Shown here: positions 15,410 to 64,000 of the stretch, piece by piece
Numbering within the stretch: position 1 is the stretch's first letter
Layout of the letters: each line of letters begins with the position of its first letter
NCBI RefSeq assembly: GCF_037042905.1
Contig: NC_087245.1
Span: forward strand, 11,658,001-11,722,000
Source of the DNA: Lytechinus pictus
Lineage: Eukaryota
Direction: 5' to 3'
DNA: 64,000 nt
Program-made: the position numbers and the translations under genes
Notes under the pieces: model-generated
Seen by the model: the letters and a program-made list of their open reading frames with translations, nothing else
Databases searched by the model: none
What the model was told of the DNA's origin: nothing

Positions 15410-15431
15410 TTAACATTAAAATCTTAATTAA

Positions 15432-15809: not shown

Positions 15810-16384
15810 TTAACCAAGGTTAAGTTTTTAAATGTCATAATAATTTAAGAAGTATATGGACCCAGTTGATGAAACTTGGACATAAATCTAATAAAGTATT
15901 ACTGAACATCCTGCTGGAGTTTCAGGTCACATGGCTTTGGTCAAAGGTCATTTAGGGTCAATGAACTTGGACTTTGTTGGGGGAATCAACATCAAAATCT
16001 TAACCAAGGTTAAGTTTTTAAATGTCGTCATAACTTTAAAATTTTATGAATCTCATTCATGAAACCTGGACATAGGAGAAAGAAAGTATCACCAAACATC
16101 CTGTGCGAGTTTCAGGCCACATGACCAAGGTCAAAGGTCATATAAGGTCAATGAACTTTGCCCATGTTGGGGGAATTTTTTTAATTGCCATCATAACTTT
16201 GAAAGTTTATGGATCTAGATAATGAAACTTGGACATAAGCGTGATGGTTTAGCACTGAACATTCTCTCTGAGTGTCAAGTCACATGACCAAGGTCAAAGT
16301 CATCTAAGGTCAACAAAATTTGGCCAAATGTTGGGGTATTTGTTGAATTGCCATCATTCTGTAAAAGTTTATGGATCTAGTTAA

Positions 16385-21308: not shown

Positions 21309-22580
<1,272 letters not shown>

Positions 22581-33609: not shown

Positions 33610-34913
33610 TTTGTCGTCCCGCCTGCATAGAGTGAGACTATATAGGTGCCGCTTTATGGATATACAATGTAGTTCATAAAATGTGGACATCGGGGTAATC
33701 AGGTATCACTGATTTTCTCGCACAAGTCTTGGGTCACATGATCAAGGTAAAGTGTCATTTAACATCGTACATATTTCTATTATGAATGGTGTTTTTTGTG
33801 AAGAATTATTCTATAATTAGCACTGCTTCTATATAAAATTGTGTAATGCAATCGAGCCTGCCAGAGGCACTCATTTTTGTCTCAGGGGTCTCACCTGCAT
33901 AGCAGAGTGAGACTATAGGCGCCGCTTTTCCGACGGCGTCAACACCTAATCTTAACCTGAGGTTAAGTTTTTGAAATGACAGCATAACTTAGAAAGTATA
34001 TGGACCTAGTTTATGAAACTTGGCTATAAGGTTAATCAAGTATTACTGAACATTCTGCCTGAGTTTCATGTCACATGACCAAGGTCAAAGGTCATTTAGG
34101 GTCAATGAACTTAGACCATGTTGGGGGAATCAACATCAAAATCTTAACCTAAGGTTAAGTTTTTTAAATGTCATCATAACTTAGAAAATATATGGACCTA
34201 GTTCATGAAACTTATACATAAGGTTAATCAAGTATCACTGAACATCCTGCATGAGTTTCACGTCACATGACCAAGGTCAAAGGTCATTTAGGGTCAATGA
34301 ACTTTGGCCGAATTGGGGGTATCTGTTGAATTACCATCATAACTTTGAAAGTTTATGGATCTGATTCATGAAACTTGGACATAATAGTAATCAAGTATTA
34401 CTGAACATCCTGTGCAAGTTTCAGGTCACATGATCAAGGTCAAAGGTCATTTAGGGTCAATGAACTTTGGCCAAATTGGGGTATTTGTTGAATTACAGCC
34501 ATAAATTTGAAAGTGTGTCTAGGTCACATGACCAAGGTCAAAGGTCAATGAACTTTGGCCATAATGGGGTATCTGTTGAATTACCATCATAACTTTGAAA
34601 GTTGATGGATCTGACTCTTGAAACTTGGACATAAGACTAATCAAGTATCACTGAACATCCTGTGCGAGTTTCAGGTCACATGATCAAGGTCAAAGGTCAT
34701 GTAAGGTCAAAGAACTTTGGCCACGTTGGGGGTATTTGTTGAATTGCTATCATATCTCTATAAGTGTATTGGTCTAGTTCATAACACGTGGAAATAAGAG
34801 TAACCAAGTATTACTAAACATCTTGTGCGAGTTATAGTAGTTTTCAAAATCAGCACTGCTGCTATATTGAATCGCGTGATGCAGGTGAGACGGCCAGAGG
34901 CATTCCACTTGTT
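33610..34913 (+). mobile_element. Two adjacent HINE family 2 copies (short deleted copy 33610-33873; longer copy 33888-34913)
   Basis: gtctcacctgcat / atgcaggtgagac subTIRs, gccagaggcattccacttgtt end, ~5 tandem units. Confidence 0.75.
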
Positions 34914-35910
34914 ACTATTGTGTCCCCCCCCCCCCCAAAAAAAAAGAAACCTTACTCCCCCTCCCCACCTGTTTATGCTTCTAGTACCATACTGCTTCAT
35001 GAGTTGTTGCTTTGTTATGCAAATCCGTATCAATAAAATGAAAATACAAAGCCTGTAGGCCTATGGTTTTAGAGACAGCCCAAATGCTAGGCCTACCTTT
35101 TCAGCTCTCTCTTTTGACATTCACAAAAATATACCAAGAGGTGGCGCTACAACCCTACAAGTGAGCTAATTTCATAGAGATGTAGTATACATCTCTCTGG
35201 CTAATTTCCCCTCTCTGTGTGGGAGGTAGTTATTTATTATACCTCAAATTTGACTTGTAGCCGATTCTGAATTTAACTATCCTATGGTTTAATCATCTAT
35301 GACGTAGCTTTAAATAATTTTAGTTGGATCTTGTAATAGAATAATATTTTTCTTGCCCCCCCCTCCGAATCGTTGGTGGTGGGAGGTATTGATTTTTTTT
35401 ATTATCATTATTCATGGGGAGGGGGTCGATAGGATATCATATCACCGTTTTACGGTAAGATCCGATTCTTGTTCATTCTTTTAAGAAAGGCTTAATGATG
35501 TACACTTTAATGTATGTGCATCATACAATCTTAAAACAAAATTTTATCAGTAAAATTGACTAGACCAGTAGTCAACTGGGTGCAACTGATATGTCTGACA
35601 TATATTCTAGTCAGAAATAACTCTGTTGTAGTAAAATACGACTAGAAAATACGACTAGAATAACAGTTGCACCCAGCTGACCCTATCAACTAGTCATTTT
35701 TTACTGATTTGTTTTTAGGGTGTAGAACCAAGAAATGATTGCAACCAGTTCGCGCAAAGATGCCTTCTCGAGACCATCCACCCTTGCATATATTTTTCCT
35801 GCTTGTCTAGGTGAAAATCCGTTATTTTCATAAAATTTAATGAGGAGGCGTTGAGAGTTAGAAAGGCGTATACTCTAAATGGGGAGATTTCACTTTAAAA
35901 AGGGTATCAC

Positions 35911-42557: not shown

Positions 42558-42690
42558 CTTGGTGTTGCCCTTGGTTTTGTTCTTCCACCTCTCCTAGTCC
42601 CACCTGATGGCGATGTTAAGAAGAATATGCATAATATGTTTGTGGGAACAGCAGCCATCACTAGTGCATTGCTCATCCTTATTATTGCAA
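42558..42690 (+). CDS. FLVCR: FLVCR-family transporter, second coding exon (absent from the ORF track)
   Basis: Polypyrimidine tract + catcag| acceptor, A|gtatgt donor; 133 bp encoding LGVALGFVLPPLLVPPDGDVKKNMHNMFVGTAAITSALLILIIA, continuing GNQ|LG as in FLVCR proteins. Confidence 0.9.
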
Positions 42691-43264
42691 GTATGTCACA
42701 TTATACAAATCAGTATAAAGGTTCACATTCTTCTGAAAGGTGCAAGGTGAATTTATGGTTGGTTTATTAAACTTCCACCTTGGTGTCAATGGCCCGTGTT
42801 CTGAAGTCGGGCTTAAATTAAACCCTGGTTTAAAGTTGTGGTTTAAGTATGGAGAGCCAATTGGAGCATAAATCCCTAACAGTAAACATTCAATTTATTA
42901 ACTCATATCACACCCAAATTATTCATAATTGTCCCACCTGATGGCGATGTTAAGAAGAATATGCATAATATGTTTGTGGGAACAGCAGCCATCACTAGTG
43001 CATTGCTCATCCTTATTATTGCAAGTATGTCACATTATACAAATCAGTATAACGGTTCACATTCTTCTGAAAGGTGCAAGGTGAATTTATGGTTGGTTTA
43101 TTAAACTTCCACCTTGGTGTCAATGGCCCGTATTCTGAAGTCGGGCTTAAATTAAACCCTGGTTTAAAGTTGTAATTTAAGTATGGAGAGCCAATTGGAG
43201 CATAAATCCCTAACAGTAAACATTCAATTTATTAACTCATATCACACCCAAATTATTCATAATT
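42597..43264 (+). repeat. 334-bp tandem duplication (units 42597-42930, 42931-43264)
   Basis: Near-identical units with about four substitutions; GTC microhomology at the junction. Confidence 0.9.
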
Positions 43265-43435
43265 GTCTGGGAATGATAACTGAAGTATTTTCTTCATTAT
43301 GAAAGCAAAAGGAAACAAAATACTACACATAATAAATATAGAATATAAACTTAATTTTTGATTTCTTGGCTTCCCATAATTTTAGTACAGAGTTAGACCG
43401 TGATCTAAGTTAAACCTGACTTCAGAATACGGGCC
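43125..43435. mobile_element. Harbinger-like MITE (5' part also duplicated from 42791)
   Basis: TIR ggcccgtattctgaagtc / gacttcagaatacgggcc. Confidence 0.7.
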
Positions 43436-43885
43436 ATTGACTTTTTATAAAAAGCAGAAAAACTAGAAACATAGTATTAAAGGGATTTGGCTAAACAGAT
43501 GAAACAATGACATAGGTTGATGAGTTGTTGAATATTATAATTTTGTGACATCACATGCAAGCATCTATCCCATATGTATACATTCTATACATTTTTTTTC
43601 ATGTTTCATGATAATTGGATAAATTTCTGAAATCAAATTGTTACTCAGTTTGCAAGAGAAGTTTACCAGTCCTGGTGATGTATGAAAAATATACATGCAT
43701 TTTGATTTATAAATATGGCTCTGCCTGCCTGTCATTTCTAGGATGGACTGCTGTTTGAAAGATCTGCAATTTATTTTGTTGATTGTTGCTTGACATAGCA
43801 ACAATTCTTAACTTTATTACTTGTTCAAAAAATGCCATGTGCATGATTTTCTGAAAGAAACTTTAATAAGTCATTATTCAAAATG

Positions 43886-46800
43886 GATTATTTCAATAAT
43901 CGTGATGTATCCATCTAGTTTTGCTAGTTAATGTTTCATGGACTGCCCTCGAATATATATGTACTACACAGATCTTTTTGCGCAATAGTGCCATCTCCCA
44001 GCGAACCCATGTCAGTCCCGATCACACCTATATCATGCTTGCCGCATGTTAAACCTCCTCTTTGTTTCTTCGCATTCGCACCACGAAGTTCGCAGAGTGA
44101 AGACATCTCCAAGAAAGCCTCTTCTTGAAAGAGCTAATCAGATTCTTTTCCATCCCTTTTTACTTTGGTACTGTATGGTTTGGCTCATTTTAAATTCCCT
44201 TAGCTCAAGTTTTAAGCAATTTTGTGGATTGCTTCTCCCTTTTATCCCAGTGTACTATTTTTGTACACAGTGCCTATATGCGCTTTCCCGCGCTCTCTCT
44301 TGGGTGATAGTTCTTTGTTCAACGCCTAGTCTTAAATTATTCCTGTCCTTTGTTACGCGAATATTTCTCTTTTGCTTCACAGCCAGAGTTTCAGGTGTCG
44401 CCCATTCTCTTAGGTTCGAATCCTGAATTCCTTCTGCTGGACTTCTCTTCAGTCTCCCTTTGATAGATTTTTAGACTTGGTTTAGCTCCTATTAGAGGCT
44501 CTTATATTTACTAATTCTGCCTCTTCTGGCATGATGGATTATTTAATTAAATCAATTTATAATCCTTGCCTCTCTTGTACTTGGTTATTCAATTACTATT
44601 AATCATTAACCTTTGGGCCGTATGCATAAACACAAGCAATTGCTTATAAGCAAATGCTTTAAGCAAAAGCAAGAGCTGGTCAAGCAAAAGGGCAAGTTTA
44701 AGCAATTGCTTAAATTTGTATGCACAAGCTTTTGCTTGTGCTGAAACCTTTTGCTTGCACTGCCTAAGCAATTGCTTGTGTGTTGGACAAAGGATCGTTA
44801 CGGTTGTGCGAACATGGCACAGTAGGACAACGACGCTTCGTTCCCGACCTGGCAGAAGTATTTTTTATTACGCAAATAGGGGGAAAACAGCGCAGAGCAT
44901 CAGGGGGGGTTTCTGTGTAGATCGATGGACAAAAATTGCCGTAAAAAGTCTAAAATAACAAGAATTTGATTAGATATGAAATCACAACATAACCTCTGGA
45001 ATATGGAGCTTGAAACGGTATGAAAGTTTAATCCTTAAACGAGAATGCCATGAGTAAGCAAGAGCTCAAGCTGGTCTGGAGGTGCTTGAAAAAACGCAAG
45101 CAATTGCTTATCAAGACAAGTAAAAGGTTTGTTTTATGCATACGGTTTTAAGCAATTGCTTGTTTGGTAAGCATTTGCTTACGAGTAGTAAGCAATTGTC
45201 TGTGATTGTAAGCAAAAGCTTTTGCTTATGAGCAATTGCTTGTTTGTGTGCATACCGATTCAAGCAAAAGGCTAGCACAAGCAATTGCTTGTTTTTATGC
45301 ATACGGCCCTTTGTCGGCCTTATTAAGTAGTTAATTATTTCAGTGTTTTTTTTTGTATGAAATAAGAAAACAAATGACTCTATCTCTCTTTTGTTTCTGT
45401 TATGGCACCTTTGGGGGTCCACAGGTCCCCCCCCCCTGTTTTTCTCCCTACATATTTTTGTTCTTTTTCAGACAAACAACAAGGAGAGGATGAGCTCCGA
45501 CTTGTCTACTGGCAAGCCCATCTTCACCGCCATGGACGAGTCCTCAGATGTGGTTTTTCTGAAGCGGCAGTGCGTATGGAGGCAAAAGTAATAGTGCGTT
45601 TCTCGTCCATAGGCACGGCTCCCCGGCCTTCACCCAAAGTGAGAAGCACTTGTTTGGGGGAGCGATCGCCTCCTCAAGAGGAGATTGAGGGTCAAAAACA
45701 GGCAAATGAGATTATAAACAATCCTCTCAAAGCCTCCCAGCTGTGGTTCTTCCATTCGGGAACCTTTGAAGGCTTCCCCGAGCCACCCGTCGGCTGCCGC
45801 CCAGCAGCTTCGCAGCAGCCTTACGCTACTGCAACAGTAAGCCACTCGCGCTAAAGACCACAAGCTTTTGTGGCTCAATAGGAAGGAGCGAAAAGTGTCA
45901 CGATGTGAACCTGGTGTTTACCGACACTTGTACATTTGATGTACCTGCGGTGCAATATCACAACTTTATTTTAAGTTGCTGCATGCTCTCGAGCTCTGTG
46001 ACGTGTTACCCACCAGCTCCATGCCTTCCTTATCCTTTGATTCATGGTGTATAGAGGGCGAATTGTCAGCATCTTACACGGCTAAAACAGAATGAATTTT
46101 CTACTACCACCGCAACCTGCTGGGGCACAAATTACCCTTCTGTCGCAGGTTTTCTGGGCGCCCGCTCGAGCCATCACCTCCTAATTGCGGGGCTCAGCCT
46201 TGGCTCCCTAACCACAATCAGCTGGTTGGAGCTTTAGGGCTCATTACTGTACTTTGCTACCCTTACGTCGTACATCGAAGTTTGAGAATTTTTAGGTCAA
46301 GCTCTCCGTAATTTTTGGCGACTCCACCCCCTTCCGTGTGTACTTGAGATCTGAGGGTTCGTCCCCAACGACTCTACCCCTGTTTTCTCCGCGGCCTGGC
46401 ATGCTGGATGGATTGACGTGTTACTTAACATTACTAATCAAATCCCCTTTTGGGGGAAAAGAGCCTGGAATCTCTCCAACCCTTTTTTGCAAAACTTTCA
46501 ACCATGCGATGGAAAAGAAGAACAAGGTATACCTCCCCAAATCTTATGGGTAGCAGCTTAACACCGGGCCGGACGAAAATACCTTTCAGTACTGATTTTT
46601 CACCGACGGCCCAGCCGTCCGGGGAACCAGGGAGCTCCAGTCGGTAATCTGGGTTTTCCCCGATGCAGTCCGATAGCCCGTTAGATTTTCCGAGAGATAC
46701 CATGGGGTTTATCATTAGCAATTTGCCATGACTTCCCTTGAGCGGTGTGTTTTGTAACTGGTCACGCCAGGCTTATTCTGCCCTAGCTCCAGTTCACTTT

Positions 46801-47310
46801 TTACTGCCTCAGATCATGGTGGCGATCAGGCATGTTTTGATCTGGTCATACATGACACAAGCCTGGCTGGCGCGAGTCCCTTTACCTCAGATGAGCACCG
46901 GCTTTCGACCACTGCTCTGCTCCCCGTGTCGTCAGGGATGGGCTGAGGTTAGTTTACCACTCCTTTTGGTCCAGTGGTATTGGGTTTAACCCTTCTGAAG
47001 TATATGAATTCACATTGTGATAGTATCAAGTATTGAATGAGCGTGCACACCTCACCTTTTTGAAAAAATGTCCACTTTTTCTGAGTTGGTCCTTTCTAAC
47101 TAAAGCACAGTGGCAGTTTGGGGCTTATATGAGACTAGTCACTCAATTTTCCTTTAGTGAACTACGTCCCCGTGGGGGCTTTCACACCGCCCAGTTGGCT
47201 TAACTCATTGTAGATTTTGCCTCTTTCAGCGAGGAGTCTGTTGGTTACTTTTACCCCAGACCCATCGGGATGGAGCACACCCGAGTGTTGCCTTGCTATG
47301 GCTTGTCATC
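43886..47310 (+). mobile_element. DIRS1-like tyrosine-recombinase retroelement, copy A (3'-truncated, decayed)
   Basis: Left ITR ~43886-44070 is the reverse complement of the right ITR at ~60605-60762; body colinear with copy B up to ~47310; RT-like remnant GLTCYLTLLIKSP at ~46410-46450. Confidence 0.75.
44615..45309. mobile_element. MITE inserted in DIRS copy A
   Basis: TIR gggccgtatgcataaa / tttatgcatacggccc; TSD ttt (or ctttg); many aagcaattgctt palindromes; absent at the homologous site of copy B (~57635). Confidence 0.8.
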
Positions 47311-49588
47311 AGCGCACGCACGCCCTCGGTACTGCCAAAGTACGCACAACGCACCGACTCCGTGAGACTTTTTAGATATTCGCCGCGGCCACTTCCTGTA
47401 CCGAAGGTGCACTTAGCAAGTGCGCGTTGCCGCACGGATAATTGCGTGGCCCGTGCTTACTCGGCACTTTCCCAATCTAATTATTCAAATGAACGTGAAG
47501 AACTCACGTGCACGTGCGGAGTAAGCATGTGATCAGCACTTACAACGCACGTTGTGCTAAAATATAAACAAGAAAACACAAAGTCATATTCTATTACCAT
47601 GTTCCACATAATGACCTTATTCTTATTTATTCACACACTATATAATACATGAATTTCATGAACTATGTCCAAAATTTATTATCATGAGTGCTTGAAGAGG
47701 TTGTAGAATGTAAAAAATGAAATCGAATCGTGTATCATGAGTTCAAACAAAGACAGTGGGAAACTGTATTAGTCCGCCAAATAAAATAAAAACAAGAATG
47801 AAAAAAAATGATTTTTCATAGATTTCTATGAAATGAAATAATGCTTATTACGAGTTCCTGCGTTCACACAACGAGATCCTGCCATGGTATTCGTCCGCAC
47901 GGGGAACTGTAATAGTTCGCGAAGTAGTTCCTTAGGGGTTTTCCTTCCCTCGCGGCCCGTTGGCCGACCATCTGGTCGGGTTCGGTCATCTGTACATCAT
48001 TCCTCCAGGCCCCGGGGATTACCTTGCCATCCGCATCCTCACGGTCCACATTCACGTCAGTTTGTCCGGGCCGGTGCTTTCGAAGCAAATTGTGAAGGAT
48101 GATACAACCCAACAGGACGCAAATTCCGTTGTTAGGCTCCATCTGCAAGGTATCGCCATCGATGAGCCAATATCCCGAAACCGTTCTCTACGACACGACG
48201 AGCCCGAGAGGTCCGATAGTTCATTACCCTCTCTTTGTGTATCAGGGCATGGCGACAATATGGCTTCATCAGCCACTTTCGAAGGGGAAACGCGTCGTCA
48301 CCCGCTAGGAAATTAGGAAAATTCTGGTCGTCACCTGGCAGTGGATCCGGTGGTGGAAATCCAATGGTGGTTCCCTCAAGTGCTCCCGGAATGCTCCCCA
48401 AAACGTGGACTGGTTGAACACGCCTGCATCTGAAGAGGAGCCGTTGGCCCCAATATTGCACCACAAGCATGACAAGAAGGAATAGTTAGAATCCACGATT
48501 GCCATGAGCACCACAGAGCAGAACCACTTATAAGAGCGATCCACTCGTCCTGGGTAGAGGGCATGGTGCGCATCTATCTCCTTATATTCCTCGTATAGGG
48601 CGGTGCAAACTTCCGATACGAACATGGATATACTATTGTGTGCCACCCGGAAGTCATATGCAAGGGACCTGCTTCCCGTTGCCAAAAAAGCGAAGAGTGA
48701 TGGCGAGTTTCAGGCCAGGTTCCAAGGCGCGGCGACTCCTGAAACATTGAAAGTATCTACACCATTGATATATAGTCAATATGTGTAATCACACGTAAAG
48801 ACAATTCCTCCTTTTTTCTAAAAGGAAAGGCAATCCCCCTCCCCATAATGGAGAATATAAGTTTTAATTGGCATTATAATTGCAGTTAGTTTTGCCCAAA
48901 CCTTTCTAATAGTACATGGACCTTTTCTATTCAAGAAGGATTGCTTCAAAACTGTCAATATTCTTTATTACAAAATTAAGGAGTTAGAAGTAGCGAATGA
49001 AATAATTGTTTATAACACGTCAAGTAATATTTGCCGTCCAAGTTATCGATTTTTATAAAGGTGCCACGTCTTGCTCATGCCCTGCCACTTGAAGCTGCTC
49101 TTGCAGTATCAGAAGTATTTGGAGTCTCTGTGGTAGAAGAGGCGGCATTTTAAAGGACGTCAGAAGATCAATCTCTATAAATATACCCCACCACATAGGG
49201 GGGGGGGGGGGGCTTACGTTCATCGCAAGTGCATGCAGTTGCAACCTGCGCGTAAGTAAGGACGGCGTACGTGAGCAGCACGTGTAAGTACGGCCTCCGT
49301 TCCAAAATGTGTCGAACGCACGGAGATCGTACGTTGTAAGCAGGTACAACTCACTCCACACGTGCGCGACGTACATTGCATGCAATTGCTCACTGCAAGG
49401 CGTGACACGCGGGCAGCGCACGCACTACGTACTTACACCTTGCGTAGTCGTACGAGTGACGTGCGTCGATGCACTTGCTCCCTGCGTTCGCCACTTTTCC
49501 CTACGTTTTCAGAAAAACGCAGCGACCGTAGCCTCCCCCAAAAAACGTACGGCCAAAGAAACCGTACGGCGGCTTGTGACCAGGGCTT
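47310..49588 (-). mobile_element. PIF/Harbinger transposon, decayed, one end missing
   Basis: Contains transposase remnants; CpG-rich cacg/cgtac subterminal repeats at both ends; terminus-like ggcttgtgaccagggctt at ~49570-49588 with no inverted partner near 47310. Confidence 0.7.
47864..48750 (-). pseudogene. Harbinger (DDE_Tnp_4 / HARBI1-ALP1-like) transposase pseudogene
   Basis: Frameshifted segments: LEPGLKLAITLRF, ATG..SLAYDFRVAHNSIS, SVVLMAIVDSNYSF, IGANGSSSDAGVF, GDDAFPLRKWLMKPY, NYRTSRARRVVENGFGILAHRWR, CIILHNLLR, RIPWQ. Confidence 0.9.
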
Positions 49589-50567
49589 ACAAGTATGTCA
49601 AACATTAAAACTTTGCTTTGTTGATATTTTTCTTCCAAGTTTGATGATTTTTCGTGTTTGATTTTACTCGTTATCATCATATCATATAAGATCATTTTTA
49701 TTCTAATCCTCCCCATTTTTAATAGCTTATTGCAATTGGTGATTGAGAAAGCTAACATGAATTTTGATGAATATCATTGTTGAGCTTATTATCTATCACA
49801 GAGGTTTTAAGATTGACTATTGTCTTTCTCAATGTCTTGCCATGCCTTTACCATTTCATCTTCTGCCTTTCTTTCATTCAACATGTAAGAGAGAATGTGA
49901 TTGTAAATAATTGGTTATCATCCATTTTTAATCAGATCCAGGACTATAAGAATGAAATATTACAATTCTGCAATTTCCTAAATAAATTTCTAAGAGAAAA
50001 TAGAATGGAATAAAATAGAATCAAGGAATTCTCATCCCTGACAATCTTACATTTAGATCATTGAAAAATGCATCATGGGAACATATCTGTGTCTCAATTT
50101 TATATCTATTGAATAATAATTGTCACATGGATATACTCAAATAAAACTCACATCAAACTTGGGCCATTCAGTTTGATATTATTTACAATTTATTTCAGTA
50201 TAATTTTGTTGGTTTACAATTAGAAATAAAAATGGTTTCTTTCTGATAAAATTCAGGACCAAAAATATACAATGTAGATTCTCAAAAAGATATCACTTAT
50301 TTCCACTTCATATTTACCTTGTTTCGAGATACCCAGAACTGATATATATCTTTACAACTGAATATACCTTTGATCGACCTGTTTCAAAGTTTCATTTGTC
50401 TATCTTCAACATATCATCAAAATAATTGTTTTGTTTTTCAATATCACCACTCTAACTATGAAGGATCCTGTACTGATCAACTCATAATAACCTGAATCAC
50501 ATTCAAATATAATATAACAAATATAACACTTAACTCATAAACTTCTCGACCCTTTGTTCTAATCACA

Positions 50568-51029
50568 TATGGGCAATTCCATAGGTTGGTGGCATGAGCT
50601 CAATGTGTCTTTGTACATATAGCCCATCTGAACCGTAACGTGAGTAACCACTTTATCTGCACCCCTAGTAAAAACCATGTGTTCTTTATTTTTTGAATTA
50701 TATACAAATTTGTCTCCCTAATATACTTCTTTGAAATGGATATAATCAACTTTCATAAAAGCCTTGCATGAGGGCACTTTTCACTTATGTCCACTTTTCA
50801 TTTTATGCATGTCCAAATCATGTAACATGAGTAACCGACACATTTCAAAGATTTGCCAGGAGCATAGTGAAATTTCCCAAGTTTTGTTTTTATACAAAGG
50901 ATAGTCAGACTGCGTACTATGTTGTGATAAAGAGATGTTTAGTTCCTATCAATAATAATGGAGTTACAGCTCCAAGTATGAGTCAAGGTGTCTCCAAATG
51001 TAACGTGAATAACCGTGGAATAGCCCATA
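50568..51029. mobile_element. MITE
   Basis: TIR tatgggcaattcca / tggaatagcccata; internal gtaac.tgagtaacc repeats. Confidence 0.55.
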
Positions 51030-52282
51030 TCAATATAAAACATTTCATTTTCAAACAACACTGCGGACTCCATGCAGTTTACCATTTCACCAAGAACATC
51101 ATACATTCAAATATAATCTCAACTTCACTGTTATCATCAGAGTTTTTCTAAAACTGTCGTCTTTTCCTCTTAACCATCGTTTGCCTAATCCCAACACTAA
51201 CATCAACTGTGAGGATCCTGTATTGATCCACCAACTAACACAAGCATTTATATCCAACATCAGTCAAGGACTGAGATAAATAAAAAGCAACATATATCGA
51301 AAGTTCTCACTATAAAATCAGTTTACTAAATAACTGAACTATTAATGTCCATCGGATTATCATTCTCATCAGTGTTCATAGTTCTATCAAACATTCCTGC
51401 TTCAGTGTGACAAACAATCATGTGTATACGTCAACAAAATCAATCTTATCGGTTACTCTCGGTGAATCTCAGGGAATCTCGGCGTCCTTTGCGACTTTCG
51501 GAAATGCTCGGCTTCAATGAATAAAAGTCATCAGGGAATTACGTCCCACCTTGGCACCATCTAAAATTTAAATAAACCAAAACCATTTCTACAATATATC
51601 TTAAAACAAATATTTCTTCTCTTGTAAATAGCATTTATAAATCCAATTCAAACTTGTCTGACTTTCATACATTTATTTATCTCACTTTTTCAAACATTTG
51701 ATTACTAACTATAATAAGCTTCAACTTCAAATGTAACTTTTCAACAACATTAAAGTCTCTATAACCCCAAGAAAATGTATATTGATTTCTACAAAACTAT
51801 CACGATAAATCACATCTTAATTCACATTATATTATACATGTTATTTTTCTTTTTCTTTTTGTATAACAAAATTTAAGGATGGAAAAGTCATTTACACTCA
51901 CCGATGACTCAGCAAAACAGGCTCAGAAATGATTGAAATACTGCTTTCTGACCTCATGCAGGTAATAAAGATTAGCAGCTCACAAACTGGAAAATAAGGC
52001 TTCTCTAAAAGAAAATACCGTAAGCCTAGAGATATGCCTTCAGAATGGTTAGTAAAAAATAGTAATTTCTCTACTGGCTTCAAAACTGCACATAAGCTGT
52101 GTGCTCACCAAAGTTTAGAAATGGTGTCTGCCAAAACCTAATGGAAAACTACTGCACATACACCCTTGCCCTAAACTATCCCAAGCAGCTGGTCAAAAGG
52201 AATGGATCCCTGCCTGGGACAAAAGGGACCTATTCAAGCACGGCATGGAAAATTCACTGCCCTGGACAAAAGTAACTATTTC

Positions 52283-52737
52283 AATAGACCAGTTCGTAGT
52301 TACTCATGGACAATTTTCGGTCAAATGACCTTTCATTTCTTTTATTATGATAGGCAGATTTCAAAGCAAAATATTACGTAAGCTTGCCTTACATAGCAGG
52401 ATGAAGAAATTGAATAGACCAGGTGACTAGAATAGCACACCAATGAATACTTTATGAAGGTATTTGATGCATTCCTACTTTGAATGCATATCATAGCATG
52501 TTGCACAATGTACTTGGCAAACTGTGAAAACCAGTCGTTCGTGGACGCGTTGTTGTTTTTTGTGGATGTAAATGAAAACCACCATTCAAAAGAATATATG
52601 AATAATCAAGACATCAAAGTTGGTGCTTATCTCATTAGATTTTAAACCACCATGTCACTTTAGTACAAATGACCTTCCTCTGATCATGCGTAGAATCTTT
52701 TGATCAGTCGCAGAAAGGAACTACAAACTGGCTTATT
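52283..52737. mobile_element. MITE
   Basis: Imperfect TIR aatagaccagttcgtagtt / aactacaaactggcttatt. Confidence 0.55.
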
Positions 52738-54409
52738 AGCTATGGTCATCGATGGCAACCTAAATTAAAGAAGCTCTGCTCATTGAAGAATAAAATCAAA
52801 TTCCTGTATCTTTGCAACCTGGCTAGAGTACAAGATAAGGTTAAATAGTTTGGCTAAAAAACGGACAAATAAATAAAATAAAATGTATTTTCAATGTGAC
52901 AATAATGTTGGAGGCAAATGCCATTAATTCAGCTTTATCACACAAAGGGATCGATGCTATAAAGTGTTAAACATTTCAGTAATTGAAAATTACTGAAATG
53001 CTGCAGATTGAATACTCAGGGGGAAAAAGCTCTGGTATTATTCTGTACATTGCTTGAACGAAAAAAAAAATGATGAATGACTCATACACTTCAGTAAAGT
53101 ACAACGCAACATTAGGCTGGGATATTAAGCTGGTGGCAGTAGGCTGCTTCATCCCCATCAGCCCAAGTTTGCAATGTACAACCGGTATGTGATATAAAGT
53201 AAAATGGCAAAAAATGTCATGATTGTTTGGGATGGCCTAATGGCTTGCTCTTGAATCCTAGGTTAGGGTCTTTTTTTCAGGATGATTCTCGTCAATGCTG
53301 TCCACTCATCAATGGATGTGGACCCAACTTCATAATTTTGGTTAAGTAGTGCGCTTTTTGGTGAGTGATTCAGCTAATTTGCAAGACTTGTATAAAGTTC
53401 TTATGACAATGCACTTGCACTTGGGTTTTTACTAGAAATAATTCATTACATAATTGATAATATTAATAATTTATTATTGTATCATAATTATAATTACTTA
53501 CCATTGCGCACTATAGGTATTGAAACGTGGATCCTAAAGTATGCTTTGTGACCTAATATTATTCCTGTAATCATACCAGAACCTTCTTGTCAGGGTGATT
53601 TGGACAGGGTACTTACAATTATGCAATTTATCTTTATCAAGTCTATTCAGGGTAGAATCGGCGCATACATGTGTATTCAAATTGACAGAGTTACTCTGTG
53701 CATTTTGATGATGGTTGATGTTCGCCAAGAGCAATACCTCACAATCAGGACTGGAATCCATGAGAGCATTATTCGTCATGTAGTGAAATCTCTTGTCAAG
53801 AAAATGGATCCATTAAATTGTTTGTACTGATGAAATGCAAGAAGGAAGAAGTGCACTCCAAACGAATTCATGTACATTCTAATGGGTGAAACATAGGATA
53901 ACAAAAAATGAGACCAATATTTGTTTTCTTCAGACAGTTGCTTATCAAGGAAAACAATGTAAGTGACAAACCGTAAATTTTGCCCCTTCAAACATTGTCA
54001 GGTCTAGTGCTAAAATCCTTATTTTTTATTGTTTATTTATTTATTTGATATTTTGACAGGGTAGCCCATTCACCAATAAGTAGTGGTCTTCCATAGGGCC
54101 CTGAATAACAAACATATTTACAAAATGCATAACGTATGTACAGAATGTTACGGCATTAAGATTCACATTAGGATTTGAATGTAAAACGAAACATTAACAA
54201 ACTTAGCAGCAAACAAAACGCAGACGGGCACTCGTTTGACCTATAATCAAATATCAATAAATCAAATTAACTGAGAACGAAATCTTGAAAATACTGATAA
54301 TATACATCAAATCATCAATGTCATGCTAACACAAGATACGCACAACAATTGTTCGAAATAGACATCAGAAATGAAATACTCAGAATTTTTTTTTTTTCCC
54401 AATTGATTA

Positions 54410-54583
54410 TGCGCCCGGCAGCAGCTGTGCAGCGCCAGATCGACGAGGCTCTATACCTTTAATTGTAGAACGCCAAACAGGTTAGAGGCAACTCCCATCT
54501 TTTAACGTCTTTTGATCTGACGCGGCTGGGGTTTAAACCCCCAGCCTCCTAGTTGTGAGACGGACGCTCTTCCAACTGAGCCT
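54410..54583 (-). mobile_element. tRNA-derived SINE (5' portion)
   Basis: Minus strand reads aggctcagttggaagagcg (A box) ... gggggtttaaacccc (degenerate B box), then a non-tRNA body; no tRNA acceptor stem. Confidence 0.65.
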
Positions 54584-55545
54584 AATTAATTTTTCTTATT
54601 CCACAGGTTTGGTATTTTGGGGGGGACTGCCAGAGGCATTCCACTTGTTTAATATTATGTCTTCGGAATGATTTGCAGATTTTACAGTTTACTTTGAATG
54701 ATTACAAAATTTATCATGTTATTAATATAAGCAGATAAAAGTGGATAGAAAGAAGAATGGCAGAGCTACATGTGTACATGTTTTCCTTAAAAAGGTGTAA
54801 ATTGAAATTGTGATCAAGTTTCCAGAAAGTAGAGAAACTTAAGATGCATTTAGAATGCCGAAATGAGTTTCCAGCATGAAATTGATTGGAGTAGACAACT
54901 TTCATAAAATAACTTGATACCAAATACCAAAAGAAAGTTTTGGGAGCTAGAGAGAGCAACCCTTGAGACCCCGTGGTAACAAAGGCCAAAAAAAAAATCC
55001 TTGTTTTCACAAACTCTGGCCTGAGCTTCCCAAGGCGTAATCCCACCAACTCGATGTTTGAAAATACCAGGTATTCTTTGATCTGGAAATTTACCCTGAT
55101 CTACCCCAATCAGAAAAAATGAGGATTTTTTTACCGTGTAAATTCAAAATATATGTATTATTCCCAAAAGAAAATATCTGCTTTAATAATTAGGTACATG
55201 TCTTTTGAAATTACAAGAACTTTGACAGGGATTTTTTCCAAGGTCACAGGTATTCTAGCAGTAAAGCAATTTACAAGAACTTCTACTTTCTTAACCCAGC
55301 AAGTAGATGAACATGGACGCCATGGGATGCTGAGCTAGCGTCCTAGTTATTTTGAATATCGTGCCTCGCGTGCTAATAAGACCAGACTGCAGTATTTTTG
55401 TAAATTCAAGAACCTTTACCAAAAGAGTCTCCATCTGGTCGATTTTGAGGCCTAAACAAGTTCTCTTAAATTTCTGGGTTTTCTTGTGAAAACTGGTCTA
55501 AATAAGTCTACAAGTTGTGTTTGTCTGGCCAATCAATCTCACAGG

Positions 55546-55910
55546 CACTAGCGTATCGAAGGGGGGGGGGCAGGGGGACAGACTGTCCCCCTGACGAGTC
55601 ACAACTCATGCAGGGGACGTATCCCTGCCCCCCTGACGAGTCACAACTGATACAGGGGACGTGCCCCCCCCCCCCCCCCTTTTAACCTGAAGCCTTTTTT
55701 TTTTTTGATTGTCAATTTTTTTTTTCTGGTAAGAAATCTTTTTTTTTTGGTTGAAGACCTTTTTATTTGCTTGTCAAATTTTTTTGTGGTAAGAAATCCT
55801 TTATTTGTGGTTGAAGACCTTTTTTTTTTTTGCTTGTCAATTTTTTTTGCGGACGAAATATCCTCCAAAAAATTTGCCCCCCCTTCTGGAAAATCCTAGG
55901 TACGCCAGTG
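55546..55910. mobile_element. hAT-type MITE
   Basis: TIR cactagcgta / tacgccagtg; perfect 8-bp TSD ctcacagg (55538-55545, 55911-55918); internal direct repeats. Confidence 0.8.
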
Positions 55911-57058
55911 CTCACAGGCACAGAGTATTCTTCTGTTCAGTGATATAGAGAAAATAACAATGTTTCTCCTGTCTGAAATTTCTGACAGCTTCATGTACTT
56001 CCCATGAACTTCAACCTTGAAAAAGGTTTGATAGGAAACAAGTGATCTTGAATACATACAGTACATGTACTACTTTACCTGTTGCAATGAGCCTTTGAAA
56101 CCCCAGATTTTTTTTTTTTGCTGAAATTTCTATTTTCACTTTCATGTATTTTGTACGTAAGAAACACTTGACATAACATTTTGTTTTACGTAAAACAACA
56201 ATTATTTTTCTTGTTTATAAAATGACAAACTTTCATTTTGCAGTAACAAAAACTGTTTTTGTTTTCTTATCCTGTACTTCTTTGTGATAATTCTTGGTAG
56301 ACCTATCAATCAAATTCAAATTGAATGAATTGAAAATGGTGGATGTGACCATCTCAGACAATGGGGCAATTATGGGGCATAATGTTATTTTCTTTACTTC
56401 AATAATCGTGATGTATTTATCTACTTTTGCTAGTTCATGTTTGATGTACACAGATTTTTGCGCGATAACGCCATTTGCAAGCGAACTCGTGTTAACTTCC
56501 GCTCACCTATATCATGCTAGCACCATGTTAAACCTTATCTTCGTTTCTTTGCCCTTGCGGAGTTGAGACGTCACTAAGAAAGTCTCTTCTTGAAAGCGCT
56601 AAGTACACTTCCAAAATACGTTTTTAGGTCATATTTTGTTGCTTCTTTGCAACCAGTTTCAAAGCCAATCCTTTTCACTTCGGTACTGGATGGTTTGGCT
56701 TGTTTTCTTTTCTCTGAGTGACTTTTAAGCAATTTTCTTAATTGCTTCTTCCTTTTCTATCCCAGTGTACTATTTTTGTACACGGTGCCTATGCGAGGTC
56801 TTCTTCCTCCCATAGCTCCCCACGCTCTCTCTTGCGTGATAGCTCTTTGTTCGACTCCTGGTCTTAATTTATTCTCGTCTTTTGTTACGCAAATATTTTC
56901 TCCTTTGCTTCACAGCCGGAGTTTTGGGCGCCTCCTATTCTCTTAGGTTCGAAACATGAATTCTTCCTCTGCTTTCCTTTTTAGATTGCAGCAGGGCTTA
57001 AATTCTTTTAAAACAGTCTCCCTTTTATAGGTTTTTAGACTTGGTTTCGCTCCTTTTA

Positions 57059-57520
57059 TACCCGACTTAGATCTCCCTCTCTCTCATGTCATAGTAGACA
57101 ATCGTCTGGAGAGAACATGGCATGAATATCCTTATCAAAAAGGGGCGGCTCAGATCATTTGTGGTAATCGTGATGTTCTTCGTCTCCCTTTGAACTCGCG
57201 AATTGCGATGTCATGGCAAAACGTCAATCAAGGGAGAAAGCGTGCGCTGCACAACGATCAAAGCCATGTGCTCAGTTAAAGGACTTTGTTTTCTATGCCG
57301 TGTTTACGCCGTGACCGTTTAGATCTACAGTCCAACAGTTGATCACGCCGTGTGATCTTGCGATTGTGCTAGACTGTCTAGGGTGTATTTTCCGTCACGA
57401 TTACCTCAGATTCGTACTTTGTCCTTTGTGCCGAGACCGTTAAGATCTAACGACTCGTCTAGAACGACCTGCGGTAACCTCCAGAGGCACTCTAGATTTT
57501 TGGCATATTTAAACAGGGTA
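57059..57520. mobile_element. Insertion in DIRS copy B (MITE-like)
   Basis: Absent from copy A at ~44490; weak termini tacccgacttagat / atttaaacagggta. Confidence 0.55.
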
Positions 57521-58997
57521 TTAGAGGCTCTTTATTATTAAGCCTCTTCTGGCTTGATGGATTATTTAATTAAATTAGTTTATAATCCTTGCCTCTCTTG
57601 TTCTTGTTTAACCAATTATATTAATTATAATCCATTGTCTGTCTTATTAAGTAGCTCATTTTTTCAGTGTTATTTAATTACCTAGAAGAACAGAACAAAA
57701 TGAATTCATTTCTCATTTGTTTTCTGTTACAGCACCTAGGGGTCCATGGGTGTCCCCCCCTTTTTCTCTCCCTACATATATTTGTTCTTTTCAGACAAAC
57801 AACAAGGAGAGGATGAGCTCTGACTCATCTTCAGGCAAGCACATCGGGAGGGGAAACCCGAATCCTTGGCGTCTTCCCCAGGTCTGCCCAACCCACCAGT
57901 CATCGGGTCACTGGGCCGGGGAGAGATCGCTGCTCTCTCCCCGGCATTAAAATTGACTAGGCTCGATGCCCTTGTTACTCCTGTACCTCGGGTGTAGGCA
58001 AAGGGCGGTCAGACCCTAGTCGTAAGAGGTGCGTTGACTCGACTGAGTCGGCTTTTCGCAGAACACCTCACAGGTCGCATCCGCCTGTGTCCCAGCACAC
58101 CATAGTGATTGGCCAGGCGTAGAAAACTTTTCCACGCAGAGGGAAGCTGCCAGTGTTACTCACGTTTCACTGGCGCCCAGGCCTGCACAGTGGGTGTATC
58201 CCCCTGGGTACCCGGTTTTCAGGCACTGCTTATGGCAGAGTTGAAAGATTGGGGGAGCGTTCCATCAATTACTTGCCCGATAAGTTATTAGTTCTGACTT
58301 TTCGCCTTGATTCTGTTTGGCTGAGAATCACTGTAACTTTCTGATAGAACGGGATTGGTTGAATAGCATCCGACATTCCTTTCATGAAACACCCCCAGAT
58401 GTCCATTACGAGCAGATACCCCTGTGTCTAACGGCCTTTTTTTTAGCTCGCCCTCCGTCACAGAGCCCCTGTCTCTGATAGTATACTCTTAATGAATCTA
58501 TGCTGACCATTGTCAGCACATTCTATATACAATCCGAGAAGCACTTGTTTGGGAGAGCGATTGCTTCTCTCCCCAAGGAGGAGATTGAGGGTAAAAAACA
58601 TCTTACCTGGCTGGAACGGAATTAATATTCCACTACCACCGCTACCTGCTGGGGTGCATATAACCCTATTGTCACAGGTTTTTCTGGGCGCCCGCTCGAG
58701 CCATCATCCCCCTATTTGTGGGACGCGGCCTAAGCTCCATAACCACAATTAGCTGGTTGGAGTTTCAGGACGTCATTACTCTTATTCGCTACCCTTACGT
58801 TGTACATCAAAGTGTGACTCCACCTCCTCCAGGTGTTCATGAGATCTGAGGGTTCGTCCCCATCGACTCTAGCCCCGTTTGCTCGGCGGCTTGGGCTGCT
58901 GGATGGATGGATGTGTTATGTAACACTTCTAATCAAATCCCCTTTTAGGGGCAAAGAGCCTGGAATCTGTCCTACCCTTTTCCCCACACCTTCTAGG

Positions 58998-59170
58998 CAT
59001 GGGCTGCGGAAGCGGGGGGTCTGGGAGGGCTTCAGCCCCCCCACTTTTTTCCAAAAGCATGTACAAAAACGTAAAAATGGCCATATGATTGTGATTTTTT
59101 GCATGGTCAGCCCCCCCCCCCTCCACTTTTTGCTCAGCACCCCACTTTTAAAACTGGTCCGCGGCCCCTG
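58998..59170. mobile_element. Small hAT-like insertion in DIRS copy B
   Basis: catgggctgcggaa...tccgcggcccctg; absent from copy A; ctagg on both flanks. Confidence 0.55.
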
Positions 59171-59789
59171 CTAGGGTGCGATGGAGGAGAAAAACAAGGC
59201 ATACCTTCCCCAATCTTAAGGGTAGTGCCTTTTCACAGGGCTGGATGGAAATACTTTACAGTACTGATTCTTCATTGACTGCGCATCAAATAGATGGTTC
59301 CGAGACCCTGGAGAAGCGATGCTTATAAAAGGGGTCACCACGATACATTAATACATTACAAATAAAAAGCACAGTGGCGGGTTGGGGCTTATTATAGGAG
59401 AGTAGTCACCTGACTTCCCTTAGTGTACTTCGTCCCTGTGGGGGCTTTCACTCCACCCTAGATGGCTTAACTCATTGTAGTTTTTGCCTCTTTCGGCGAG
59501 AATTTTTTTTTTACCACAGACCGATCGGGATGGAGCACACCCGAGTGTTGCTTCTTTTGGGTGTGTCATGAGGGAGGCTTTCACACTCTCCTGTCGTAAA
59601 TTCTTCACCTTTTACACAACGTGTTCTTGGGTGTAGGAATTTGTGCACAGATCTCGCTGCTTTCAAGCACAGCCAGACCTGAGCCTCCCCAGGCCGCGAG
59701 CATCCCGTTGTGCTACACTTTGGAGGCTTTCACACCACCCCAGTATTATACTCTTCCCCTCGGCACTAAGTGCTCTACAGGAGAACGAT

Positions 59790-60290
59790 ACCTTTGGCTC
59801 GTTGTTCCAATCTAGAATTTATTCTAAATTGTTGAAGCACTTGTCCCAAGCGCCCTCCAAGGAGGAAACTTGCGCATTTTTCGAGTCTCTCTAAAAAAAT
59901 TTCGCCTTAGCATATTCTCCGTTTGAGCCTAGTTTAGGCCTTCTTGATCACATTACGTTGCGTGCTTATGTTTTAGGTGGGAGAGGCGTAGTATCCGGCC
60001 AATTCCGAAACCTCCTTTCTTGGCCAAGAATTACACAACCCTAGATCTGTCTTTATCCGGGTGTTCGAGTGGTTTCTTGAAATGACATAGTATGTTCGCT
60101 TATTCGAACATCTCTTGTATTCTTGCGCGCTTTTTGCCTTTCCCGCTTCTTCGCTTTGGATCGTTTTGGCGATCAAAGCGATGGGCGCAGGTGCGTTGTT
60201 TTTCATGTGAGGCCGGAGGCTCTCAGTACTAGAAGTATCAACTCATCTTGAGCACTCTTCTTCAAGGTGTTCTCCTTGACGACTTACAAC
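59790..60290 (+). pseudogene. Decayed DIRS tyrosine recombinase C-terminal region
   Basis: Motifs in expected order across frameshifts: VP(W->stop)NL, FLAKN, S(R->L)WIV.AI, A(H->L)STR..SS(W->stop)ALF. Confidence 0.7.
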
Positions 60291-60814
60291 GCCTCTGGCG
60301 TTTTGCCTTTTCCTTACGTAAGGAAAATTCCTGGGCTGAGGAGAGTTTGAGCCCTCAGCCTTGAAAGCAACAGCCTCCTCATCTCCATCTCCCTTGAACT
60401 TAGTTTAATATTTCCTTTTGTGACATGCTTCCCACGGTTATCCGTGCCAGTCTAGCAAAAGTAAATGGATACATCACGATTATTGAAGTAAATCATGAAA
60501 ATACTTACCCGATTTTCTTATGTATGAGATAATCGGATGTATCCATCTACTATCCCACCCTTTGTCCCTCGCCTTGCATGGCAACATGTCTTTTTTGTGA
60601 GTGCACAAAGAAGATGTTAAACGTGCATGCTAACATGATATAGGTGTGAGCGGAAGTAGATATGGGTTCGCCAGGTGATGGCGCTATTGGGCACAAATCT
60701 GTGTACATATATATTCGAGGGCAGTCCATGAAACATGAACTAGCAAAAGTAGATGGATACATCCAATTATCTCGTAAATCAGAAAATCAGGTAAATATTT
60801 TCATATTTAATGAA

Positions 60815-61237
60815 GAAATTATTCTAATGAATATGCAGTGAGTAAAATGATGTCATGTCCCAACTTATTCTTTTGTATTTTTCATATTCATGTTAATACA
60901 AATTGTATCCTCCAAGAATGTAAAAATATAATTGACTTCTGGTTATTTGCAAGATGATCATTGCTGAAAACTAATTTGTTACACTAGAGACATTTTTTAG
61001 TTTGAAAATATGAAATAATTATTATTTTATGTCACAAAATAAGAATCTATGATAATAGGAAGTGATGACATAATCAGCTCACATAAGACGCATGCATAAC
61101 TGCTTTCACAAAATATTGCTAAACTTTCAAAATTCAATAACTTGATTATGATAGATTTATGAAATTTTCAGCATTTTGATTATCTAATTTTAATTTATTT
61201 GTATTGATAATATTTTCAGCCTGGGGGTTCCCCTTCA
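60815..61237. mobile_element. Partial TTAA-type element related to 4776-5359
   Basis: Shares aatattgctaaactt...aaataactt and ends ttttcagcctgggggttcccttcaa; left end not found. Confidence 0.5.
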
Positions 61238-64000
61238 AGTCACAGTTTTAATCTACATCTTGTATTATATGTTTGCATGATTTGTGTGCCTACTTGAAGT
61301 GTTAATAGAAAAAAAAATCTTCAGGGGCTTATTTATCAAAACTGACATTTTTAAATGAAAAATGTCAGCAAAGTATATGTTTTACCAGAACAGTCATTTA
61401 TGTCTACTTGAACTTTATCACTAGTAACTACATGTAGTAACAATCAAGAAATATTAATGCAGTAATTATGTCACAAAAAAAGAAAGGTCAATATTTGTCT
61501 TTTATTTTGATACTCCCACTTGGAGGGTCCTTGCAAATATTGCTACAAAACCCATACTCACTGGCCGTGCAGTCAATGGGCAAAAGCAGGAAGAAGTCTT
61601 GTCAATTGTGATTTCCCCCATAACAGTCCTGATTTTGAGATGCAGGAAAGACAATTTTCTTTTGATGCCGTCATGTCTCATGAAATTTAATTCAGGTTAA
61701 TGGTCTGAATTGTGAAAAAGCTGTCTCAAATTAATTGAGGATGATAAATACTTGTCAGGCTGCTTATGCTGCCTGTATAGATAATACATTTGAATCACCA
61801 GAATGATAACAGATTGACTTGGTTCTGCTGAGAAGAAAGAGCACATTAGGATTGCATTAATACATTGTTCACTGCAAGGTATAGCATTATAAGTTTAATA
61901 GCGCAAAATCAGAAATAGAATTAGAAGCTCCCATATAAAGGAACTATATCTAGGTACTTTACTTCATATTGATCATCAGGCTCCGGGGCATAACACAAAT
62001 GTTAGTGATTAATCGTACGCTTGATTATCACAATTGAATTTGAATGTACATTTTAGTCAATGCAATCAAAAAAAAAAAAAAAAGTTCTACGATCACTGCT
62101 AAGCTACTTGTGTTGCAGCCCCCTGCAGTCTGGAAAGAATTTGTTTGATTTAGTGTGACCTATGAAATTCTTTCATTCCCTGCCTAGATCGAGGGCAAGT
62201 TTTATAGGGATCACTGATAAACTGTTGGGGTGGGCCGTACAGTATATTTTAAGCTTTTATTATAAAAACCAACCTGACATCAGCTAGACGAAGCCGATCG
62301 ATTGCAGCCTAAAAGCAGGCTTGGGCGATTGGATGAGGAGTCTGCCCTCCACCTTCTCTATCACCATGGCTTGCAGGCCCTCGGTCCGATTCTGAGCAGC
62401 GATAGCTTGCACGCAGCTGCATACGCGGCGCAGTGAATCAAATAGCCGAGCTATCCCAATTTGTTCAGTTCAATATCGCTGGTCCTAAATATGAAGATTA
62501 TAATGCGTGCAGTCCAGAGAAAGCGAATTGCTCACAAATATGTGAATTACTCCTGGCTGGTCACTTTAGATATGGATTTTACATTTGCAGAAGTGTATTG
62601 AAATATATGTACCTTGGGTTAACATTTCATACCCACGTTGTACCAGTAATCCAAGTTATCTCATTTCCAAGTAAGTTAGTAGGCCTATATTGTCTCTATC
62701 GGGATATGGGTTTCCTGTTTGGTATGGATACAGTTGTAGAATTCATTAGAACATATAAGTGGTAGTCTCCGGGGTAGTCTGTAATGATGAAACATGCTGA
62801 GAAAACGTGATGGTATGGTATTGAGTACAAATGTTATGTATGCACGTGTTAGCTTCATAATGTGGTGCAGCACCATCCTGAGTTTGCTCAATCTCAAGAT
62901 TTTAGCCCGATCGGCCCTCTTCGCGATTAATCTCGTGATTTAAGAAACCCTGTCTCCACCAGCAGAAGATGAGCAATTCGTGCTCGAGCAATGATGTATG
63001 ATGTAACGCTATGAATAAATAATCTTGAGTGCATCTGCACCTGCGAATTAGCGGGATAATTCGTAAATAGCACGCTATTTTCCAGATAATCCTAAGTTGA
63101 CTTGGGATTGCAATCTCGAGATTAATCCAGCGAACCCTCCCAATGATTGCGTTTCCATTACAAATAATGTCGAGATTGTTCAGATCTGGATAATTTGCCG
63201 GATCAGAAATAGTGCTCTAATTTGAAAACTATAGTAGTCAGTACATTAATAATATGTATTTTGCTATCTACTATTTGTTAGTTTCAATTCAATTCATTGA
63301 AGCAAAGTACTAGTACTTAATACTAGAGCAGTGACTATTGAAACATATTTACCATAGCCCTTTATGTTTTACTTGGACATCAGCAATACACTGTCCTGCC
63401 AAGTTACCATAAACAAAAAACAGAATATTAGTAGGGCTGTCACATTTTTATGTCATATTTTTATGTCATATAGGGTGCGTTTATGCACCCCCCTTTGTTT
63501 AGATCCCAGAATCATGATGTGAATCATGAATAGAAACACATTTCTGCAGAATCACGGTTGTGTTTAGTCAAAAGTAAGCATATTTCAAATTGCAAATGAA
63601 TAACAGAAAAGGAGTGTTTAGAAAAACGTTTCTACTTTCTGCAGAATCATTTTCGAAAATGGTTGCATAAACATAAACAATGATTTGATTTATGATTCTA
63701 TGACGTCATTATGTCGGTCAACTTCTGTGTTCATGTCATACTTCGCGGTGCCAATGGTATTCTTCGCTTGCGCTTCACACAGTAGCCGTACACATTTATT
63801 GAAAATCAATGTTGTGTATCTTTTGCAATTACATGTACATGTAAACCCACATTGAAGTTGACCTATAATTTTTGCGTCAAACTGTGCACTACGATGAGCA
63901 CTGGGTAGGATTGAAATGAGGGAGAAACAACGTTGGAGAGGGCCTGGTTTGATTCTGCAGTAACCATGATTTAGGTTTGTGTTTTGAATCATGGTTCATG

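Follow-up and report, generated by a model that had tools for sequence, protein, structure and literature searches.

Introduction

DIRS1-like retrotransposons end in inverted terminal repeats (ITRs) with a right extension, and carry an internal complementary region (ICR) whose two parts overlap at a 3-nt junction; their termini read NTT, and a core sequence recurs in both ITRs and both ICRs (PMC3266345 Table 3, e.g. BmDIRS1, XtDIRS3 and SkoDIRS2). DIRS-1 of Dictyostelium cannot do without its ICR, and its reverse transcriptase (RT) is able to act in trans, as the other proteins probably are (PMC7192593). We analysed two DIRS-like copies, A and B, of which B shows these terminal features in full, in a 64,000-nt stretch of the Lytechinus pictus genome (GCF_037042905.1, contig NC_087245.1, positions 11,658,001 to 11,722,000 of the forward strand). 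This whole stretch is called the window, and positions are counted from its first letter.

Almost all classes of mobile element, the DIRS order included, have known non-autonomous parasites. TOC1 of Chlamydomonas reinhardtii is a non-autonomous DIRS retrotransposon (PMC9940879). SIRE of Trypanosoma cruzi is a truncated non-autonomous form of VIPER, and it was left open whether it is trans-mobilised or a mere remnant (PMC6681497). Among long terminal repeat (LTR) elements, the large retrotransposon derivatives (LARD) and the terminal-repeat retrotransposons in miniature (TRIM) are non-autonomous derivatives (PMC8498967). In Xenopus, many DIRS-like consensus families are degenerate (36/75; PMC9210276). 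The literature searched, most subscription journals, Repbase and supplements being outside its scope, yielded no account of a non-coding family in nature that has ITRs and an ICR of the DIRS1 type, and the excerpts of PMC8498967, PMC12477816, PMC3783388, PMC8969392 and PMC5753468 contain none. Such families may be listed in the supplements of PMC3266345 and PMC9210276, in Repbase, or in the reviews of Poulter and co-authors.

The two copies resemble each of these systems in part. With TOC1 they would share a place among the large non-autonomous members of the tyrosine-recombinase retrotransposon order; TOC1 bears split direct repeats, is green-algal and was recently active, whereas A and B are old and have ITRs and an ICR. 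SIRE is likewise a non-coding derivative of a tyrosine-recombinase retrotransposon, but it is ~435 nt long with split direct repeats, and the element described here is ~10 times longer with DIRS1 ends. TRIM and LARD have direct LTRs and a target-site duplication. The element resembles LARD in having intact replication signals on either side of a full-size, probably non-coding interior; it differs in that its ends are inverted and would be rebuilt via the ICR, that direct LTRs and a 4-6-nt target duplication are missing, and that it is far longer than TRIM. The element is classed here as neither an autonomous DIRS1 nor a TRIM/LARD, having the terminal features of DIRS1-like elements without detectable coding ones.

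A sequence-only reading of the window had proposed that A and B carry the same coding lesions, a broken RT motif among them, and that the family amplified without coding capacity while keeping its cis signals. The amplification is the best reading of our results, but the motif given as the reason for it failed; non-autonomy remains probable because of the coding-signal statistics and the ends. We consider it likely that A and B are old, independent insertions of a low-copy, non-autonomous, large non-coding DIRS1-type family that was mobilised in trans.

Results

Terminal structure of copy B

Copy B is 4416 nt long, or 3765 nt without its two secondary insertions, and has the full set of DIRS1 ends: ITRs, a two-part ICR of 41 + 62 nt, a 3-nt junction with NTT termini, a right extension and a shared core of at least 10 nt. 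The sizes of 17 / ~28 / 41-62 found here compare with 16 / 30 / 40-62 in BmDIRS1 (PMC3266345). The ITRs (56393-56545 and 60605-60770) were identical in inverted orientation at 117 of 140 positions, and ~24 nt that are retained in A and in the right ITR of B are gone from the left ITR of B. The ICR, near the 3' end, complements the start of the left terminus (38/41) and the end of the right terminus (56/62), with 94 of 103 positions identical when both parts were pooled; it is found in copy B only, A having lost that part.

The circular junction is AAA at 60490-60492 and fits the NTT termini (B starts and ends with TTT, A starts with ATT). The junction core is ATTT, its register being uncertain by one base. 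A 16-nt core was present in both ITRs of B, in both ICR halves and at the left end of A, giving five matches with at most three mismatches, compared with 0.64 expected and with 0/100 shuffles. Direct LTRs with a target duplication were not found in A or B; the ends are inverted and only the junction trinucleotide is repeated. Both secondary insertions in B are absent from other copies in public contigs, and each has its own target duplication.

Relationship between copies A and B

Self-comparison of positions 43001-62000 against the window showed A and B to be colinear relatives on the same strand, and it found no 3' half, ICR or right ITR of copy A in the window. The left ITRs were identical at 116/137 positions, the 5' regions at 416/490 and the interior blocks at 590/700. 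This corresponds to 84-85% in aligned blocks and to an even divergence of 15-16% across ITR, 5' region and interior, which fits near-identical sources followed by neutral decay. The colinearity and substantial divergence reported from the letters alone were thus confirmed; the anticipated higher conservation of the ITRs over the interior was not seen (84.7% versus 84.3% between A and B). As had also been reported, both copies start at the element terminus with unrelated left flanks. The 1-kb left flanks gave a local score of 24, and 50 shuffles gave a mean of 24 and a maximum of 30.

Copy A is an independent insertion, truncated at its 3' side. A Harbinger-type DNA transposon, decayed and lying on the minus strand (47313-49590), adjoins the truncation point and may have removed the 3' half of A.

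The proposal that A and B share the same coding lesions was not borne out for their large gaps, which are private: 1049 nt of A have no counterpart in B, and ~690 nt of B (57846-58535) have none in A. The extra segment of B is present in other copies (X2 records 2 and 3, X6 record 10; these labels denote public sequencing runs described below). Alignments of other copies stop at B 58600 and near 59283, exactly where A has extra sequence. A source element of ~4.8 kb is probable on the strength of these breakpoints, the contigs' extra letters being presumed equivalent to the A segments. A family size of 3.8 kb reached through shared deletions was rejected, the large gaps being private to single copies. 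The earlier length of ~3.8 kb for B is therefore right once the insertions are removed, but it does not describe a TRIM-like family; it is partly a deletion of B's own, which makes the element LARD-sized (~4.8 kb).

Further copies in public contigs

Public contigs were aligned to B at 80% likeness in four of the ten listed runs (X2, X6, X7 and X9), and contig depth was not taken as copy number. In X7 and X9, contigs with 0-6 differences represent B itself and reach across its right junction and over portions of its 3' half; these two runs may derive from the source sample. Further contigs from these two runs were 13-16% diverged over B 59463-60555, a region gone from A (records 21, 26, 28 and 29, two of which overlap each other), and there was also one 5' contig free of A's gaps. 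In X2 and X6, which are labelled as another organism, mostly at least 2-10 contigs differed from B at the listed interior sites; at least 13 and at least 20 contigs differed at the ICR core, a sequence with three matching places in each copy. A rough lower bound for detectable relatives is at least a handful to ~10.

The existence of further copies indicates a family and not a local duplication, so that the possibility of only two locally duplicated copies, which had been named as one of two refuting conditions, was tested and put aside. Independent insertion is indicated by the two unrelated left flanks and by the additional diverged copies, which the public contigs show without their flanks. 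One X6 contig spans the right junction of B with 18 differences in 300, which places the insertion of B before the split between these samples. An X6 contig ~95% like the left flank of B (55950-56361) stops 32 nt before the element and continues with 363 unlike letters, while another X6 contig crosses the right junction (records 8 and 14). Such a break may come from a local rearrangement or an empty allele.

Metagenome contigs scanned with a terminal motif for a helper with matching termini gave 40 loci, none matching past ~32 nt and none with a tblastx match at E<=0.01. These loci were rejected as relatives and attributed to chance.

The supposed RT motif and protein searches

Both copies do translate to the peptides given, CYLTLLIKSPF at 46419 and CYVTLLIKSPF at 58914; their interpretation as an RT remnant found no Pfam or phmmer support, and the pattern occurs at chance level. 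A loose form of it was counted twice in A and four times in B, against 2.6 and 4.5 in shuffles, and the strict form, present twice in A, had a P(>=1) of 0.12-0.16. The two copies share the motif because they are homologous at that place, and it was rejected as evidence of RT.

No Pfam match to RT, RNase H, methyltransferase or recombinase was obtained in 12/12 full frames and 39/39 short plus-strand windows of A and B; besides sub-threshold chance matches, the only match was the neighbouring Harbinger remnant. A phmmer search with the A frame that contains the motif gave 0 matches at E<=0.001 among 1.84 billion representatives, and word-index protein searches with two B frames gave none at E<=1. 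The forward frames of the A and B interiors contained neither YL/IDD (RT) nor HSxR (recombinase) motifs. When DIRS proteins were sought by an RT motif, a single locus was returned, on a phage contig and with the motif outside RT. By profile, protein and motif searches, then, no pol open reading frame (ORF; RT, RNase H, methyltransferase) and no tyrosine recombinase ORF was detected in A or B, and in this they differ from DIRS1-like elements, as they may in gag, of which no frame was detected.

Coding signal of the interior

Termini and ICR are expected to be identical at insertion (PMC3266345). The differences between ICR and termini (9/103) and between the ITRs (23/140) therefore indicate ~4-8% decay per strand since B inserted. 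A frameshift-tolerant hidden Markov model (HMM) of coding signal, scored against dinucleotide shuffles, gave the B interior (2446 nt) z values of 0.42 and 0.3 in two runs and the A interior 1.66 and 1.56; the positive controls, the Harbinger remnant and a host exon, reached z 3.9 and 8.6. Decay controls were real ORFs from a panel of 46, combined into 15 sets of three (2445 nt) or used as 40 singles (846 nt) and decayed in silico. At 8.5%, 13% and 20% substitutions, the minimum z of the sets was 5.96, 2.98 and 2.04, and none of the 15 came down to the B value. The core shared by A and B scored 0.18 and 0.25, and the 846-nt controls at z <=0.6 numbered 0/40, 2/40 and 1/40 at the same three levels.

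In a stop-only test, one-frame controls at or below B were 1/60 and 3/60, and two-frame controls 0/120. A path test based on minimal breaks lacked sufficient power (control z -0.2 to -4.4), and HMMs took its place. The codon-position comparison of A and B, made on short blocks, showed no third-position excess. For gag, which is poorly conserved in general, a conserved ATG lies ~1 kb into the element (45490 in A, 57813 in B), and the downstream stretch scored z -0.6 in B (57815-58535) and z 2.1 in A (45492-46070). The tract at A 45465-45522 is a possible old gag start or splice acceptor.

The interior of B probably lacked coding capacity already at insertion, and the case is weaker for A. Intact ORFs, whose reconstruction had been set as a counter-test, were tested for indirectly; the coding-signal tests speak against them for B, and A gave a mixed stop-only result. 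The interior may consist of long-decayed DIRS ORFs or of unrelated filler.

Feature coordinates and surroundings

Table 1. Features of copies A and B and adjoining insertions, in window positions.
Feature	Position	Strand	Remarks
Copy A	43887..47312	+	Left terminus, 5' region and interior; 3'-truncated; starts ATT; final block in common with B runs to 47312
Left terminal repeat of A	43887..44065	+	144/164 to reverse complement of B right ITR, 131/155 to B left ITR, 37/40 to left ICR
Secondary insertion in A, like a miniature inverted-repeat element (MITE)	44615..45309	.	31-nt terminal inverted repeats, TTT on either side; not in B
Pyrimidine tract, AG and ATG (45490) in A	45465..45522	+	52/58 to B 57788-57845; island also matched by a more distant contig
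A segment gone from B at 58600	45701..46069	+	Alignments of other copies likewise stop at B 58600
CYLTLLIKSPF motif in A	46419..46451	+	Translation real; tie to RT without support
A segment replaced by ~80 nt in B (59286-59365)	46614..47101	+	Other copies stop aligning near B 59283
Harbinger-type transposase remnant, just past the A truncation	47864..48709	-	PF13359 DDE_Tnp_4, E 2e-7; coding-signal z 3.9; natural positive control
Copy B	56393..60808	+	TTT at both termini, complete ends, no longer target duplication
Left ITR of B	56393..56545	+	~17-nt divergent part, then conserved part
Secondary insertion in B	57061..57518	.	TA on either side; contigs from 4/4 runs join 57058 to 57542
Segment of B and other copies, missing in A	57846..58535	+	~690 nt; 12-bp hairpin at 57915-57945
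CYVTLLIKSPF motif in B	58914..58946	+	Homologous to A motif; tie to RT without support
High-copy secondary insertion in B	58998..59170	.	Flanked by CTAGG duplication; very high contig depth; other copies join across
Left ICR of B	60452..60492	+	Complements left-terminus start (38/41 for B, 37/40 for A)
Second ICR part of B	60490..60551	+	56/62 match to terminus
Right terminus of B	60605..60808	+	Right ITR to ~60780, then ~28-nt right extension

The window DNA is AT-rich and of animal-like character. Both DIRS copies lie downstream of, and on the same strand as, the frames of a gene starting at 39398 which we take to be membrane-transporter-like, and they are possibly in an intron. An exon-like frame of this gene at ~42555 has its 3' part repeated in a tandem duplication at 42597-43267 (334-nt period, 98-99% identical). 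Another exon-like frame, 21309-21971, is presumably ubiquitin-conjugating enzyme-like. A large foldback-like element occupies 9053-11029, its ~530-nt inverted arms (95-98% complementary) surrounding an array of 31-nt AT-rich repeats, and a dispersed family of 163-192-nt tandem units forms three clusters within 13028-17249 and 33671-34916.

Discussion

The chief alternative is that A and B were ordinary autonomous DIRS1 copies, coding at insertion, which decayed independently and share only ancestral sequence; we regard this as unlikely. Several results favour it or weigh against a non-coding family. The union length of ~4.8 kb equals that of an ordinary DIRS1 and falls inside the DIRS1 range of 3974-6283 nt (PMC3266345). 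The large gaps are private, divergence is as uniform as in neutral decay, and the ATG at ~1 kb is conserved. Stops common to A and B are mildly depleted on the plus strand (11 versus 19.0 +/- 3.6 over 718 nt; minus strand 23 versus 21.8), in a comparison with column shuffles that did not keep dinucleotides, and 13/13 blocks have one frame free of shared stops (P 0.35). In the stop-only test, 6/60 and 20/60 one-frame controls were at or below A, so that one decayed frame in A is still compatible with the data. The z of 2.1 for A 45492-46070 belongs here as well, as one of 22 segment-strand tests. Stop depletion, this z value and the conserved tract and ATG could be slight remnants of ORFs that were gone well before the spread, or the tests may score true DIRS frames too low. 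As controls, microbial or phage ORFs and a single host exon were used, with no DIRS genes among them. The word-index and phmmer searches spanned 3/6 forward frames, no helper was found in the metagenome contigs scanned, and the non-coding claim is based on statistics and blank searches.

Against coding copies stand the paired ends of B, which cap its decay at a level where all control ORF sets stay clearly visible, and the lack of YL/IDD and HSxR in any forward frame of the two interiors. Five protein searches yielded no DIRS-type domain, yet the Pfam search picked up the adjacent Harbinger remnant.

Another possibility is a Crypton-like element, not a retrotransposon at all but a non-autonomous DNA element of the tyrosine-recombinase kind that holds its joined ends in an internal copy; it would account for the absence of any RT trace. 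It is very unlikely, as the long ITRs, the right extension, the ICR of two parts directly inside the right ITR and the shared 16-nt core agree with DIRS1 in their order and sizes. A local origin of both copies from a single dead element, by duplication or rearrangement, which would make the shared features uninformative on mobilisation, gains something from the 12.5-kb spacing and common orientation of the copies, improbable for a randomly placed low-copy family, and from the left ITR of A being closer to the right ITR of B (144/164) than the left ITR of B is (117/140), but it is largely refuted and scarcely credible, because homology begins at the terminal trinucleotide between unrelated left flanks, further diverged copies exist, and A and B have diverged about as deeply as the ITRs of B.

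For a trans-mobilised non-coding family, all cis parts required by the DIRS-1 model are kept in B. To the observed ends, ICR, junction, further copies, independent sites and missing coding signal of B, a mechanism adopted from DIRS-1 biology, the helper and every enzymatic step included, would add the following. The element would be transcribed from its left end and the transcript reverse-transcribed by a helper RT. Pairing of the ICR with both termini would allow the ends to be rebuilt and a circle to be closed at the TTT junction, which a helper tyrosine recombinase would then join to a matching genomic trinucleotide with no target duplication. Each copy would afterwards decay neutrally, through substitutions, its own deletions and secondary insertions.

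A bolder version, which we offer tentatively and think doubtful, is that full-size non-coding DIRS1 parasites form a long-lived guild in this genome, their interior serving as a maintained RNA scaffold in which conserved islands, a hairpin of 12 bp and a 14-nt motif present three times would mark packaging and priming signals. Short islands common to more distant relatives lie near B 56900, at 57788-57829 and at 58740. Among eight candidate hairpins, chosen after viewing and so biased, one had z -4.5, two were borderline (z -2.8 and -2.6) and five showed nothing. A two-sequence consensus fold of A and B had compensatory changes in 3/48 pairs and was uninformative.

The first of these hairpins is a perfect 12-bp one at 57915-57945; a related sequence occurs ~630 nt downstream at 58551-58574, and the latter is also in A at ~45656. 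The 14-nt motif occurs three times in the 3' interior of B (59436-59461, 59573-59586 and 59718-59743) and once in A (47172-47195), and it folds no better than shuffles.

Because A and B are old and damaged, they are weak material for finding such signals. If the family is real, its retained parts could nevertheless point to the primer and packaging signals of DIRS1, and families of this kind would escape domain-based DIRS surveys such as ReDoSt. They would be a natural counterpart of the trans-acting RT in Dictyostelium (PMC7192593).

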